Virus record (IMG/VR): IMGVR_UViG_3300042402_003952
DNA: 64,000 bases
Strand: one strand, 5' to 3'
DNA from: a virus
Taxonomy: Duplodnaviria > Caudoviricetes
The notes beneath the pieces are model-generated. The model ran no database searches. It saw nothing but the letters and a program-made list of their open reading frames with translations, and was not told the origin of the DNA. Positions 526 to 63,100 of the stretch are shown piece after piece; position 1 is the first letter of the stretch; every line of letters starts with the position of its first letter. The position numbers were made by a program, and so were the translations under genes.

Positions 526-533
526 TATAAATA
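526..533 (+). promoter_or_regulatory. T4-type late promoter TATAAATA
   Basis: exact TATAAATA, intergenic. Confidence 0.65.
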
Positions 534-573
534 AGAGTGTCTGTTGAAATCGCAAATCTCTACGGACAAGATT

Positions 574-597
574 AGGTGCTCTTTTGGGCACCTTTTC
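574..597 (+). terminator. intrinsic terminator-like hairpin
   Basis: AGGTGCTC-TTTT-GGGCACCT followed by TTTT. Confidence 0.7.
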
Positions 598-610
598 TAT
601 TATGAACTTT

Positions 611-618
611 TATAAATA
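611..618 (+). promoter_or_regulatory. T4-type late promoter TATAAATA for the endonuclease gene
   Basis: exact TATAAATA 25 nt upstream of ATG 644. Confidence 0.75.
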
Positions 619-643
619 GTAATGCGATTTCAACAAGATAGAA

Positions 644-1465
644 ATGACTTACCAAAGTCCAAGAATATACACATACAAAATTACTTTTGAAGAAGTTCCA
701 TATTACTATTATGGAGTTCATAAGGAAAAATACTTCAACGAAGAATACTGGGGTTCTCCTACAACAAACAAGTGGTGTTGGGAACTTTATACTCCAAAGA
801 AACAAATACTTCAATTTTTTGATTATACGGATGAAGGTTGGTTGAAAGCACAAGAAATTGAAGAAAGATTGATAAAACCATTTTTCAATACTGATAAATG
901 GTGTTTGAATGAAAGTTGTGGTGGTAAAATATCTCTAAAAGTTTTGCGTGAAAGTGGAAATAAATGCTATGAACTTGGTTTAGGAGTTCATTCACTAACC
1001 AAAGAGCAAAGAAGTGAAAATGGTAAAAGAACTGGTAAAATTTCTGGAAAAAAAGGAGGTGAAAGAACATATGAACTTGGTGTTGGAGTTCACGGAAGAA
1101 CAAAAGAACAGATGAGTGAAGATGGGAAACAAGGAGGAAAAAAATCATACGAACTTAAAATAGGAATACACGGAAGAACTAAAGAACAGATGGTTGAAAA
1201 TGGTAGAAAGTGTGGAAATAGAACATATGAACTTGGAATTGGAATACACGGACAAAGCAAAGAAAAAATGACGGAAAATGGAAGAAGAGGTGGAAAAATA
1301 GGAGGTAAATTAGGTTCTAAAGAAGATAAAAGTAAAGCAGCAAAAAAGGCAAATTCTCAAAGGTGGATGTGTCTTGAAACTGGATATGTTTCAAACTCTG
1401 GAGGACTTTCTAACTACCAAAAGAAAAGAGATATAGACACCTCTAAACGAGTTAGAGTATCATAA
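644..1465 (+). CDS. free-standing GIY-YIG-like (Seg-type) homing endonuclease with C-terminal tandem repeats
   Basis: N-terminal RIYTYKITF..YYYYGVH..EEYWGS, E..LI and W-CLNE resemble phage GIY-YIG domains; four ~26-aa YELG.G.HG..KE...ENG repeats. Confidence 0.7.
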   Translation: MTYQSPRIYTYKITFEEVPYYYYGVHKEKYFNEEYWGSPTTNKWCWELYTPKKQILQFFDYTDEGWLKAQEIEERLIKPFFNTDKWCLNESCGGKISLKVLRESGNKCYELGLGVHSLTKEQRSENGKRTGKISGKKGGERTYELGVGVHGRTKEQMSEDGKQGGKKSYELKIGIHGRTKEQMVENGRKCGNRTYELGIGIHGQSKEKMTENGRRGGKIGGKLGSKEDKSKAAKKANSQRWMCLETGYVSNSGGLSNYQKKRDIDTSKRVRVS

Positions 1466-3521: not shown

Positions 3522-3713
3522 ATGATTGACTTCTCTCAAAAACGATTTGTTGATTTGGGTCAAACACTTTATACAGAGTGGTTGAAAACTTGTTCTAATA
3601 TGCAAAGTGCTACAGAACAGGAACGACGAGAAGTGTTCAAGTTTGGTGCTGAACTTGCATTTGAAGCAGCAGAAGAGTTTGCTAAAGTATTCCATAATCA
3701 AGAGGAGAACTGA
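3522..3713 (+). CDS. hypothetical protein
   Basis: 63-aa ORF after promoter. Confidence 0.65.
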   Translation: MIDFSQKRFVDLGQTLYTEWLKTCSNMQSATEQERREVFKFGAELAFEAAEEFAKVFHNQEEN

Positions 3714-10569: not shown

Positions 10570-10785
10570 ATGAATTTTTTACGCTGGTTGTTTTCTCCTA
10601 CAGATAAAGAAATGTGTGAAGAATCTAGCATTTATTCAATTATTCTTGATTTACAAGAAAGAATTGAAACTCTGGAAGCAGAGAATATTGAAACCACAAA
10701 TACTCTTTATGAACTCATGAATTCTATTGAAGCAGTTGATGCACGTATAGATATTCTGACTTTAGAAAAGTGGAAAGATAAATAA
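10570..10785 (+). CDS. coiled-coil hypothetical protein
   Basis: 71-aa ORF, AAGGA SD. Confidence 0.65.
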   Translation: MNFLRWLFSPTDKEMCEESSIYSIILDLQERIETLEAENIETTNTLYELMNSIEAVDARIDILTLEKWKDK

Positions 10786-10821
10786 TGATGCCTGAGTTGG
10801 TGGTTCTTTTCAGGTTGGGAT

Positions 10822-10848
10822 AAAGCACCTTAAGTTAAGGGTGCTTTT
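10822..10848 (+). terminator. intrinsic terminator-like hairpin
   Basis: AAAGCACC-TTAAGTTAAG-GGTGCTTT(T). Confidence 0.7.
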
Positions 10849-10852
10849 CCTG

Positions 10853-10860
10853 TATAAATA
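10853..10860 (+). promoter_or_regulatory. T4-type late promoter TATAAATA
   Basis: exact motif 27 nt upstream of ATG 10888. Confidence 0.75.
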
Positions 10861-10887
10861 TTAATAACCACCAACTTAAGAGCAGTT

Positions 10888-11484
10888 ATGAAAGGAGTAA
10901 TTTATTGCTACCATTGTATTCCTACGGGGAAGAAATACATTGGACAAACAAAATATGAAAGAAGGAGAAAAGAACACCATAATTATATGGTGAAAAATGG
11001 TTCTAAAAGAAAGTTTTATAACGCAATTAAAAAATATGGATGGGAAAATTTCATATATGGTATAATTGAAGAATGTGATAGTAATACATTACTTCAAAGA
11101 GAAATGTACTATATTAAAAAATATGGCACTTTTAAGTGTGGATATAACAGTACATTGGGTGGTGATGGTAAATCTGGATGGAAACACACTGAAGAGACTA
11201 AGGGAAAAATTGCTAAATCAAACACTGGGAAAAAACGCTCTGTTGAGCAAAGAAAACTTTTAAGTGAGATACATAAAAATAAACCACTTTCTTTAGAGCA
11301 CAGAAAATCTATAAGCGACGCACATAAAAAAACAGGATTTGTTCCTCCTTCACATAGGAATACGAAATGGTGGAATGATGGACAAATTTCTAAAAGATCT
11401 GTAGAATGTCCAGGTTATAATTGGAGTCCTGGAAGATTGCCCTTAGGTCCTTACTTTAATAGAAAAAAATGTACGAAGAATTAG
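10888..11484 (+). CDS. GIY-YIG homing endonuclease with NUMOD3-like DNA-binding repeats (Seg-like)
   Basis: GVIYC..KKYIGQT, FYNAIKKYG, E.YYI, GYN.T.GG, HTEETK.KI. Confidence 0.9.
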   Translation: MKGVIYCYHCIPTGKKYIGQTKYERRRKEHHNYMVKNGSKRKFYNAIKKYGWENFIYGIIEECDSNTLLQREMYYIKKYGTFKCGYNSTLGGDGKSGWKHTEETKGKIAKSNTGKKRSVEQRKLLSEIHKNKPLSLEHRKSISDAHKKTGFVPPSHRNTKWWNDGQISKRSVECPGYNWSPGRLPLGPYFNRKKCTKN

Positions 11485-11651
11485 ATGATTTTGAAAAAGC
11501 ACTTGCACACTTTGGAACAAGAGTAGATATTATTATCGCACTAGAAATGGGAGGAAAACTTGATGCTGACTCTGCTTACAAAAATATTAAATCGGAACTC
11601 AAAGAACTCAAGCGAATCCGCAAACAACTCAAAAAAGATGCGGATTTGTGA
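11469..11651 (+). CDS. conserved cyanophage hypothetical protein
   Basis: 60-aa ORF, L..FGTRV.II.ALEMGGK. Confidence 0.65.
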   Translation: MYEELDDFEKALAHFGTRVDIIIALEMGGKLDADSAYKNIKSELKELKRIRKQLKKDADL

Positions 11652-19928: not shown

Positions 19929-19955
19929 GTTGAGACCACTTCCCAAACCGTCTCA

Positions 19956-22117: not shown

Positions 22118-22188
22118 GGGGAATTAGTTAAACGGTATAACGGGTGCTTTGCAAGCACTTATTAGCAGTTCGATTCTGCTATTCTCCA
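22118..22188 (+). tRNA. trnA: tRNA-Ala(UGC)
   Basis: acceptor GGGGAAT/ATTCTCC with G3:U70; D stem GTTA/TAAC; anticodon loop TTTGCAA; T loop TTCGATT; no encoded CCA. Confidence 0.92.
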
Positions 22189-22742: not shown

Positions 22743-22829
22743 TTTCTACGGGCATTAAAGGTCCAAACTTTAAGTAAGTCCCACACCCTCTATGCCTCTT
22801 AATAATGCACAAACAGGAGGGTCTCTTAT

Positions 22830-22902
22830 GGGGCAGCAGCATGACGGATCATGCACCATCCTTCTAAGATGTAAGATGGGGGTTCAAATCCCTCCTGCCC
22901 TG
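22830..22902 (+). tRNA. trnR: tRNA-Arg(UCU)
   Basis: acceptor GGGGCAG/CTGCCCT; D stem GCAT/ATGC; anticodon loop CTTCTAA; T loop TTCAAAT. Confidence 0.88.
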
Positions 22903-60163: not shown

Positions 60164-63100
60164 ATGCCACAGCAAACTAACCTAAACGTATTTCCATATT
60201 TTGATGACTTTGATCGAGAAAATCAATACTATAGAGTTCTTTTTAAGCCAGGTTATCCAGTACAGGCTAGAGAACTAACAACATTACAATCAACTCTCCA
60301 AAGTCAAATAGAACAACTTGGAGATCACTTTTTTAAGGAAGGATCGGTTGTAATTCCTGGAAATATTAACTATGTTGATAATTATTATGCAGTAGAACTC
60401 CAAGAAAATTATCTTGGATCGGCAGTTTTAGATTATTTGCCATACTTGATTGGAGCAAGAATTAGAGGATCTAGTAGTGGTGTTAGAGCTCAGGTAGTTG
60501 GAATTTTAGATTTAACTAATTCGGAAAGAGGAAATAATACACTATATGTAAATTTTTTAGGATCAGATACTGCTACTAATAGTTTACAAGGTTTTGCTGC
60601 GGATGAAATTTTAATCGTAGAAGACGGAATATTTGAAACAAGTACCATAAATGAAGATAATTCAGTAATTATTCAACCCGGAGATGGATTTGCACTGACT
60701 ATAGGTGGAAATCCAAATTCAATTGCCTCTTCTGCTCACATATCTAATGGTGTTTATTATTTAAGAGGACATTTTGTAGATGTTGAAGAACAATCAATTC
60801 TTCTAGATCAATATGGAAATAAACCAAGTTATAAAGTTGGTTTAGAAGTTACAGAAACTATCGTAAATTCCGATTTTGATATTGATATTAATGACAATGC
60901 TCAGGGATTTTCAAATTATGCGGCACCAGGTGCTGACAGATTGCAGATTCAGGCAATACTTACAAAAATACCATTAGATAATACATCTTCAGAATTAACT
61001 TCTAATTTTGTACAACTTTTAGAAGTTAGAAATGGAATTTTACAACAACAGATTACCAATCCCGATTATAATATTTTTGAGAAGGAGCTAGCAAGAAGAA
61101 CATATGACGAATCTGGAAATTATTATGTAAAACCACCAACTCTTGTTGTTAATGAAACTCTAGATGATCTAAAAGGAAATAATGGTGTGTTTAGAGATGG
61201 ACAATTAACATACAATAATAATAAAGCATCTGATGAGTTAGGAACTTATGTTATATCTCCATTAAAGGCATTTGTAAGCGGATATGAAATAGATGTAGTA
61301 GGAACAACATATCTTGATTTTGAAAAACCAAGAACTACAAAATTACTAGAAGATCAAAGCGTAAATTATGTTACAGGACCAACTTATACTCTCAACAGAG
61401 TATATGGATCACCATCACTTGGAATTTCAACTTCATATGCATTAAGTTTAAGAGATCGTAGAGTAGGGTCAAACCAGACTAGTGCTGCAGGAAAAGAAAT
61501 AGGACTAGCAAGAGTATATGATTTTGCACTGGAGTCTGGATCTTATAACACTTCCACTCCAAATGCTAATGAGTGGGATATTGCTTTATATGATATTCAA
61601 ACTTATACTGAAATTTCTTTAAATGAACCAATCACACTTACTACACCAACTTATATTAAAGGAAAATCTAGTGGGGCAACTGGTTTCCTAAGATATAATG
61701 CTTCTAATTCAGGTATTATAACAGCATATAATACGAAAGGATCATTTTTAGTTGGTGAAAGATTTATATTTGATGGTATAGAAAATACAAGAGTTTCCAC
61801 TGCTCTCACTGCATATTCTACAAATGAAGTAAGATCTTTGTATGGAATAGTGGGAAGTGGATCAACATTTACTGCAGATATTAAGCAATCTGTACTAGCA
61901 AATGTTGGACAAGTAAAAATAACTGCTACTGGCGGTGGAATTAGCACTGTAACCTCCTCTGACTTTATCTTCACAGGAATTGCAACTGTTGGAGGAACTG
62001 TTGCATTTTCAAATCCAGGTCTATCGGTAAATACCTTTGCTAAAATAGAAACAGTTTCTCAGAGTTCTATTACAATTTCTGGTGTAACTACAGTTTCTGG
62101 TGTCTGTGATGGTGGACTACCTACATCTGACATTAACCCAAGTGATTTTAGAGTTTTATATTCTAATTTCCAGTCATCAATTGATAATACATTATATACA
62201 ACACTACCAAAGAGAAATATTGCTTCAGTGGACTTGACGGACTCATCATTAACCGTAAGAAATCAATATAATGTAACTATTACTACCAATTCTACGAATA
62301 CAGTTTCTGCAGAATCCACTGAAACTTTCTTACCATTTGATGAAGAAAGATATGTACTTATCACTAATTCTGGTGTTACTGAGAGTTTAAGTTCAGATAA
62401 ACTTGTATTTTCTAATGGCGGCAGAGAATTAACGATTAATGGATTACAAACTACTTCTGGAACAGGAAGATTAATTGCAACACTAAGAAAAACGAATATT
62501 AAGTCAAAAGTTAAGAATAAAAATAGAGTAAAGACAATTGTAGTTGATAAGTCTAAGTATGCTTATTCCGGTGTAGGTGCCACTACGAATAATGATGGAC
62601 TTACTTATGGAACTTATCCATATGGAACAAGAGTTCAGGACGAAGATATTTGTTTACTTGAACCAGATGTAACAATACTATATGGAATATATGAATCAAA
62701 TGATACATCTGAACCAGAACTTCCAAATCTAACACTTTCTTCAATTATCAGTCCAACAGGAAAAACTGATGATTTGTTAGTTGGCGAAGAATTTGTAGGA
62801 TCTACCAGTAGTGCAGTTGGTGTTTATGCAGAAAAACTAAATGCAACAAAAATATCATATGTGGTATTGAATTCTAATAGATTCCAAGTGGGTGAAATAA
62901 TTACATTTAAAGAATCAGGCATAACAGCTACTGTTACTGCGTTTGATGCTGGTGATAATAACATCACTGCAAATTATACTTTTGATAATGGTCAAAGAAA
63001 TACAATTTATGACTACTCTAGAATTACAAGAAAATCAAATTCAAAGGAACCAGTTAGAAAACTAAAGATTGCTTACGAATCTGCAAGTTTTTCAACTTCA

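Follow-up and report, generated by a model that had tools for sequence, protein, structure and literature searches.

The window analysed here is a 64,000-nt stretch of viral DNA (IMG/VR record IMGVR_UViG_3300042402_003952) from a T4-like cyanomyovirus, with a G+C content of 35% and every gene on the + strand; among public sequences it is closest to the freshwater Synechococcus phages S-SRM01 and B3/B23. At the locus under study, a small gene is followed by a leader (10777-10890), by the gene of an endonuclease and by a gene of the DUF7219 family (Table 1). The original prediction had named in this leader an ATAAATA box, two complementary arms, a terminator hairpin, the motif TATAAATA and the ATG of the nuclease gene, and we recovered every one of these elements in place.

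Table 1. Features of the nuclease locus and of the related leader in the window
Feature	Coordinates	Strand	Basis and remarks
Upstream gene, 71 aa	10570..10785	+	ORF list; final codons and stop overlap P1
Segment replacing 54 nt of the endonuclease-free S-SRM01 allele	10758..11496	+	Global alignment; contains recoded gene ends, leader and endonuclease gene
P1, putative late-promoter box GATAAATA (NATAAATA type)	10777..10784	+	Motif and family conservation; ATAAATA at 10778-10784; predicted start near G10790
Left arm	10789..10805	+	Part a (GCCUGA) and variable core b (GUUGGUGGUU); pairs with 10866-10884 in MFE and centroid folds
Hairpin H1	10790..10815	+	Stem 10790-10796 / 10809-10815, arm core b in the loop; fold of the left half
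Hairpin H2, intrinsic-terminator-like	10817..10851	+	Core 10822-10831 / 10838-10847; UUUU run 10845-10848; putative termination
P2, putative late promoter TATAAATA	10853..10860	+	In the loop of the long-range helix; predicted start near A10866
Right arm (b' and a'')	10866..10884	+	Includes Shine-Dalgarno-like AAGAG 10878-10882; ends 3 nt before ATG 10888
Free-standing GIY-YIG / NUMOD3 homing endonuclease gene, 198 aa	10888..11484	+	Pfam, PHROG
Downstream DUF7219 gene	11469..11651	+	Pfam DUF7219 9e-22; ORF list
Sister leader copy	526..646	+	Before 273-aa endonuclease-like gene 644-1465; fold z = -6.0

Among the selfish elements of T4-like phages, homing endonucleases are the main ones and, to our knowledge, the containment of their toxicity is understood for a few coliphage genes only. 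The 198-aa protein matched the Pfam families GIY-YIG (25.5 bits, cut-off 22.6) and NUMOD3 (24.3 bits, cut-off 20.4) as well as PHROG 314, 'homing endonuclease' (1.2e-33); a PDB sequence search with this protein returned no match. As in the seg-like class, a catalytic GIY-YIG domain is combined with a NUMOD-type DNA-binding module, and the gene is present or absent at a conserved intergenic site in related phages, this site being empty in S-SRM01 and occupied in the uncultured contigs L055-L057, whose cassette lies exactly where that of the window does.

The empty allele that the original prediction had proposed to look for in relatives was found in S-SRM01, where the orthologues of both flanking genes directly overlap (ATGTATGA) and no nuclease gene separates them; the orthologue of the 71-aa gene is at positions 1370-1621 of locus L001. 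By global alignment, the left flank (10670-10757) is 82% identical to S-SRM01 L001 1500-1587 and the right flank (11497-11648) is 72% identical to L001 1642-1793. The two alleles differ between these flanks, with 10758-11496 in the window for 54 nt in S-SRM01, and the unit therefore consists of the leader and the nuclease gene, bordered on each side by a few recoded codons. At the sequence level, the presence or absence of a cassette at a conserved site is the usual signature of a free-standing homing endonuclease. We also observed that the last ~9 codons of the upstream gene (10758-10785) and the first ~9 codons of the DUF7219 gene (11469-11496) differ strongly between the alleles with and without endonuclease; these divergent gene ends are probably recoded or co-converted flanks of the target site. 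In the endonuclease-free S-SRM01 allele the ATG of the DUF7219 gene overlaps the stop of the upstream 71-aa gene. In the window this ATG lies 13 nt 5' of the endonuclease stop codon, with a 16-nt overlap between both genes, and the insertion may have shifted any translational coupling of DUF7219 from the 71-aa gene to the nuclease gene.

The two arms of the leader contain an exact complement, AGTTGGTGGTT (10795-10805) with AACCACCAACT (10866-10876), and one delimitation of the arms gave 10795-10808 and 10863-10876. The suggestion that this complement could be extended by G-U pairs was borne out: the helix comprises 17 pairs between 10789-10805 and 10866-10884, with two one-base bulges and 60 nt from arm to arm. 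The 131-nt fold of this region has -39.7 kcal/mol (z = -3.8). The hairpin H1 and this long-range helix compete for identical bases and are mutually exclusive. Part a of the left arm, GCCUGA, resembles the rRNA anti-Shine-Dalgarno sequence, and the G+C-rich hairpin H2 has a short U tract, with four U followed by CC (UUUUCC). A T4 late box spans about -13 to -6, and by this rule each predicted start coincides with the first base of an arm, at ~10790 for P1 and ~10866 for P2. We infer the promoter activity of P1 and P2 from these sequence features.

The sequence NATAAATA is the published late promoter of cyanomyoviruses (PMC2984593). In the window, ATAAATA was found 14 times on the + strand and 0 times on the - strand, for ~26 copies expected over both strands (~13 per strand), and all 14 copies are located at gene boundaries or gene fronts, with zero within gene bodies. 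The core of the late promoter thus appears purged wherever it is unused. Since ATAAATA is restricted to gene boundaries of the + strand and has a published role as late promoter, a surviving copy is unlikely to be neutral. TATAAATA taken alone showed no enrichment in the window, with 7 copies found for 5.8 expected.

We then compared this leader with those of related genes. For this purpose, relatives of both window nucleases were fetched from IMG/VR, their upstream regions were compared, and a covariance model of the layout was run on 384 kb of related phage DNA and on the window. The model found 100 copies in the related DNA, and we collected 71 distinct leaders, 2 from the window, 6 from S-SRM01, 3 from B3 and the remainder from uncultured viral contigs; the same search gave zero copies in the marine phage ME01. 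In the window the model gave exactly two matches, one of 96.5 bits at 526-646 and one of 79.9 bits at 10777-10890. The leader had been described as a second, independent copy of the one at the other site. This independence did not hold, as both match the same covariance model and are homologous members of one family rather than products of convergence. In the case of the sister leader, orthologous leaders in S-SRM01 and B3 show compensatory changes in the arms. The claim that the layout itself is under selection was strengthened, with 71 distinct copies of identical order and spacing and with covarying arms. The invariant order is N[A/C]TAAATA, a ~5-nt spacer, the left arm, a short complement of the 5' part of this arm and a U-tract terminator hairpin, followed by TATAAATA, a 4-5-nt spacer, the right arm, a few bases and the ATG.

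The degree of conservation differs strongly along this order. P2 contains ATAAATA in 71/71 leaders, and P1 reads ATAAATA in 55, CTAAATA in 13 and TATATAATA in 3. The distance from the box to the first paired base is 5 nt for P1 in 65/71 leaders and 4-5 nt for P2. P1 and P2 are the most conserved columns, with entropies of 0.15 and 0.22 bits, compared with 1.05 bits for the spacer next to P1; the spacers and the unpaired tail are intermediate (near 1 bit), and the arm core is the most variable part (1.48 and 1.52 bits, 36 variants in 71 leaders), the hypervariable stretch in the H1 loop being 7-10 nt long. It had been feared that the first ATAAATA, which overlaps the end of the upstream gene, was incidental. 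This concern can be set aside, as the box is conserved in the family at a fixed 5-nt distance from the arm while the 5' flanks are unrelated; since these flanks are unrelated between insertion sites, the first box lies inside the mobile unit. The ATGATG just after it had been read as the relic of a start codon at which the cassette was inserted. This reading was not sustained, as the ATGATG lies within the leader and recurs at unrelated sites (L059, L061, L067, L092, L033, L034 and L069).

The genes found behind the leaders belong to 3-4 GIY-YIG-like types and to the HNH type, with in addition a possible PD-(D/E)XK/zinc-finger protein and two short unknowns. The leader thus appears, from its distribution, to be a module travelling with nuclease genes or exchanged between them. 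A gene annotated 'translation initiation factor 2' in S-SRM01 (MW015081.1, 62406-63273; L136) stands directly behind a leader copy, and this name is probably the mis-annotation of a nuclease-type gene. Several contigs (L059, L027, L037, L060, L071 and L098) carry two or three leader and nuclease cassettes within 1.3-3.5 kb, with arm cores that are all different, as in L059, where leaders were found at 125-227, 1396-1503 and 3554-3642; these contigs look like tandem nuclease islands. A crude screen of ORF orientation revealed no clear case, among the collected loci, of a cassette placed opposite to its neighbours. In the window, a terminator of the AAGGTGC...GCACCTTTT type, like the leader hairpin, follows the sister gene 644-1465 on its 3' side (1487-1523, +) and overlaps a sigma-70-like promoter (TTTACT-17-TATAAT), forming a PeSL-like composite of terminator and early promoter; similar terminators are present at 19955 and 16015. 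The search of Rfam with the leader gave no family above threshold, the best permissive matches (E = 0.2-2) being unrelated. Elsewhere in the window, Rfam matched an abiF RNA motif at 22786-22822 (+; 42 bits, threshold 37), between the tRNA genes 22118-22188 and 22830-22902.

We examined the conservation of the structure in the family. RNAalifold on a plain MAFFT alignment gave no structure, the variable arms being misaligned. Pairing statistics were taken from the covariance-model alignment of the 71 distinct rows, and in this alignment, which leans towards the model structure, 91.9% of the cells of the long-range helix and terminator are paired, compared with 68.1% after shuffling; 24/25 pairs are changed on both sides, and the covariation score is 0.643, compared with 0.221 for shuffled alignments (0/500 shuffles reach the observed value) and at most 0.152 with slid partners. 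For H2, 94-97% of the cells are paired and 10/10 pairs vary on one or both sides. Because a model-guided alignment leans to its model, an alignment-free duplex test was added. In this test, left arms paired with their own right arms with a mean of -23.5 kcal/mol, versus -10.0 kcal/mol for cross pairs, and the left arm of the window gave -23.1 kcal/mol with its own partner versus a median of -8.6 kcal/mol with the right arms of other copies. The helices contain many G-U pairs (for example GU 19, GC 17 and AU 13 at one pair), which points to an RNA of the + strand rather than to DNA.

When left halves were folded alone, all ~50 distinct ones (from the 55 leaders collected first) formed H1 and then H2, adjacent to each other. 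H1 is made of the 5' part of the arm and its downstream complement, with the arm core in a loop of 12-17 nt. Its stem covaries in classes, GCCUGA/UCAGGU, GUCUGU/ACGGAC, UGCUUG/CAAGCA and UACCUAUA/UAUAGGUA. A second covariance model, built for H1, suffered from register errors, with 64.7% of the H1 cells paired; as its alignment is badly registered, we based the support for H1 on the folds of individual sequences and on own-versus-cross duplex energies. These a/a' duplexes gave -6.75 kcal/mol for own pairs versus -3.77 kcal/mol across classes, with a block-diagonal class matrix. In these folds, the stretch from ~10790 to the U tract would fit a stand-alone RNA of ~60 nt.

We consider it likely that this leader is a portable RNA control element of cyanophage homing-endonuclease genes, with a core made of a cis mask and P2 and with an additional antisense layer made of P1 and H2. 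The best-supported core, in our analysis, is the cis mask with a nested late promoter, which the original prediction had kept as a fallback. In T-even and related phages, the ribosome sites of I-TevI, I-TevII, I-TevIII, segB and Aeh1 mobE are sequestered by a hairpin on early and middle transcripts; a late promoter within the structure gives a translatable late RNA, and the T4 late genes e, soc and 49 use the same hairpin device (PMC2988022). In the cyanophage leaders, likewise, an arm pairs with the ribosome-binding region and a late-promoter box lies between the arms in 71/71 sequences. RNA coming from the upstream operon would be partly stopped at the terminator H2. The RNA that reads through would carry both arms and form the 17-pair helix, which would bury the AAGAG and the stand-by region on its 5' side and leave the nuclease untranslated. 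After replication, the late RNA polymerase would start at P2 and produce an mRNA deprived of the left arm, which would be translatable.

Computed accessibilities are consistent with this mask. The mean unpaired probability from -18 to +3 is 0.69 in the P2 transcript, and from -18 to -5 it is ~0-0.1 at most positions in RNAs that contain the left arm, whether they start at P1 or upstream. Against masking, the ATG and the preceding 3 nt stay unpaired and the Shine-Dalgarno-like element is weak; initiation in cyanobacteria may depend little on Shine-Dalgarno pairing. Translational masking and termination at H2 are thus predictions from these folds.

The second layer of the proposed mechanism concerns P1. 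From its position at the 5' end of the left arm, this promoter would, together with H2, produce an RNA of ~60 nt with two hairpins, delimited by a conserved late-promoter box and a terminator-like hairpin. This RNA would dampen the late translation of the nuclease, in trans when it is terminated and in cis when it reads through. The predicted RNA and the first 19 nt of the P2 mRNA are complementary, and the net gain of pairing in trans was computed as -13.5 kcal/mol after the cost of opening H1. As expected for an antisense small RNA, the fold presents the complement in a loop, in ~50 distinct left halves. From these sequence features, the P1-H1-H2 RNA is probably an antisense repressor of late nuclease synthesis. 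We propose more tentatively a joint reading, plausible and still open to serious doubt, in which a separately transcribed ~60-nt RNA of the same strand, with the loop as a 'barcode', would be the private translational repressor of each cassette, acting in trans, and in which diversifying selection would act against cross-talk between cassettes of one genome or of co-infecting phages. As 16 of the 71 copies deviate from the consensus, P1 may be weaker than P2 or dispensable.

A run search found no sequencing run containing half of the stretch. Five short contigs from four RNA libraries cover 10809-11109 only; such contigs cannot show RNA ends and may be DNA or related cassettes, so that they speak neither for nor against the short RNA. 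One of them extends across the terminator and P2, as would be expected of read-through RNA and of contaminating DNA alike. Other targets of the arm in trans were looked for in the window, and none was found except an 11-nt match in a long gene at 61131. There, an exact copy of the right-arm core AACCACCAACT occupies 61131-61141 (+), inside a long structural-type gene, for ~0.03 copies expected over both strands; we took this match as a coincidence since it is away from any start codon.

The helix and P2 could also do everything in cis, the upstream ATAAATA being the stop-codon-rich end of the cassette or an inherited relic, and H1 an aid to folding or termination or a protection for the 3' ends of mRNAs from upstream. 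Such cis control is what has been published for T4, and no extra parts are required (PMC2988022). Moreover, P1 is off consensus in more than a fifth of the leaders, the RNA-library contigs give no transcript support for the short RNA, and H1, which lies directly against H2, might do no more than stabilise upstream transcripts after their termination. However, P1 is conserved almost as well as P2, with a fixed spacing to the arm next to variable spacers, and a neutral ATAAATA is unexpected in a window where this motif is purged from non-promoter places. A pure cis mask needs neither the independent covariation of H1 nor the presence of the arm core in its loop, and it leaves unexplained why this paired core is the most variable part of the leader. 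We consider this cis-only account rather unlikely.

The inverted repeat might act in DNA, as an operator for autorepression by the endonuclease, a cruciform or a recombination site. Autorepression of I-TevI at a site overlapping its late promoter is established (PMC2988022) and the arms do flank P2; yet one leader serves at least 5 unrelated nuclease families, which leaves no place for a protein-specific operator, and an operator of the I-TevI type was rejected on this ground. In addition, complementarity alone is kept in hypervariable arms, the frequent G-U pairs would not match in DNA or on the opposite strand, and the position of the right arm follows the ribosome site and the predicted start of the transcript, so that a DNA-level element is very improbable. 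Attenuation by a leader peptide, in which a short ORF from ATGATG (10785-10790) through the left arm would control termination or the opening of the mask, could draw on the ATG, GTG or TTG present at this position in 54/71 leaders and on the overlap of the window ATG with the upstream stop (TAATG). We rejected it, as start codon, length and frame are all unconserved: 17/71 leaders have no start codon, the peptide length varies between 2 and 33 residues, close relatives differ in frame, no peptide is conserved, and the TG belongs to the paired arm. It is barely credible. As for a chance assembly of A+T-rich motifs without function, to which the lack of enrichment of TATAAATA in the window might lend some weight, it is already refuted by the leader family, with 71 distinct copies of one architecture, covariation and every copy of the motif on the coding strand at gene fronts; its probability is practically negligible.

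The masked ribosome site with its nested late promoter resembles the T-even I-TevI, segB and mobE systems (Edgell, Gibb and Belfort 2010, PMC2988022) in that the nuclease gene is embedded in an earlier transcription unit, an upstream arm pairs with the region of the ribosome site, a TATAAATA-type late promoter would give a late RNA lacking the upstream arm, and late-only expression is expected. In the reviewed T4 cases, terminators lie inside mobE and segF and not in the leader (PMC2988022). The cyanophage helix, unlike the T-even ones, is long-range and holds a full intrinsic terminator in its loop; another late-promoter box, also conserved, is placed at the 5' end of the left arm, this arm has its own covarying alternative hairpin, and one homologous portable module with a hypervariable arm core serves several nuclease families. 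With respect to the T4 device, what appears new is that P1 is conserved and precisely placed, that the loop contains a terminator and that H1 covaries. We found in the literature no description of a second upstream late promoter, of a terminator in the loop or of the leader family.

In the RNA-OUT/RNA-IN system of IS10, and likewise with the type I toxin-antitoxin and plasmid antisense RNAs such as Sok/hok and CopA, a small and stable RNA forms a stem-loop, and this loop is the complement of the 5' end and the ribosome site of an mRNA; the RNA is read from the opposite strand or has a divergent promoter. The putative cyanophage RNA is like RNA-OUT and type I antitoxins in its target, the mRNA of the nuclease or toxin of the mobile element itself, and in its variable specificity sequence. 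It is unlike them in being encoded on the same strand, upstream in tandem, with a complementarity that comes from an inverted repeat and a left-arm sequence also able to act in cis; the RNA here is a prediction from sequence. The PeSL cassettes of T4-type phages (Arbiol et al. 2010, PMC2839356; Comeau et al. 2014, PMC4122927) are likewise short conserved units of stem-loop and promoter, which recur between the accessory genes of variable regions and move together with gene cassettes. PeSLs differ by their early promoters of sigma-70 type, by having no arms that mask a ribosome site and by having no tie to nuclease genes, whereas the cyanophage leader has two promoters of the late type. The account of the CfrI antisense RNA of cyanophage S-PM2 in PMC2984593, which cites Millard et al. 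2010, offers another case in which a T4-like cyanophage has an antisense RNA associated with a homing endonuclease gene; as described in that account, CfrI is ~225 nt long and lies on the opposite strand across the endonuclease gene and psbA, its sequence and layout being unrelated to those of the leader.

Phage annotation currently misses this leader family, since it is absent from Rfam and from the literature that we found. Freshwater cyanophages have in it one exchangeable RNA module for many nuclease families. As a structured RNA the leader is also an unusually clear natural example: its two covarying folds exclude each other, and its 'address' sequence is free. Should the short RNA exist, an antisense regulator would be encoded there in a new way, on the same strand, with tandem promoters and an inverted repeat, and the family would offer a ready-made set of orthogonal pairs of repressor and target. 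If this is true, phage homing endonucleases would carry a brake on copy number and toxicity similar to a type I antitoxin or to RNA-OUT.
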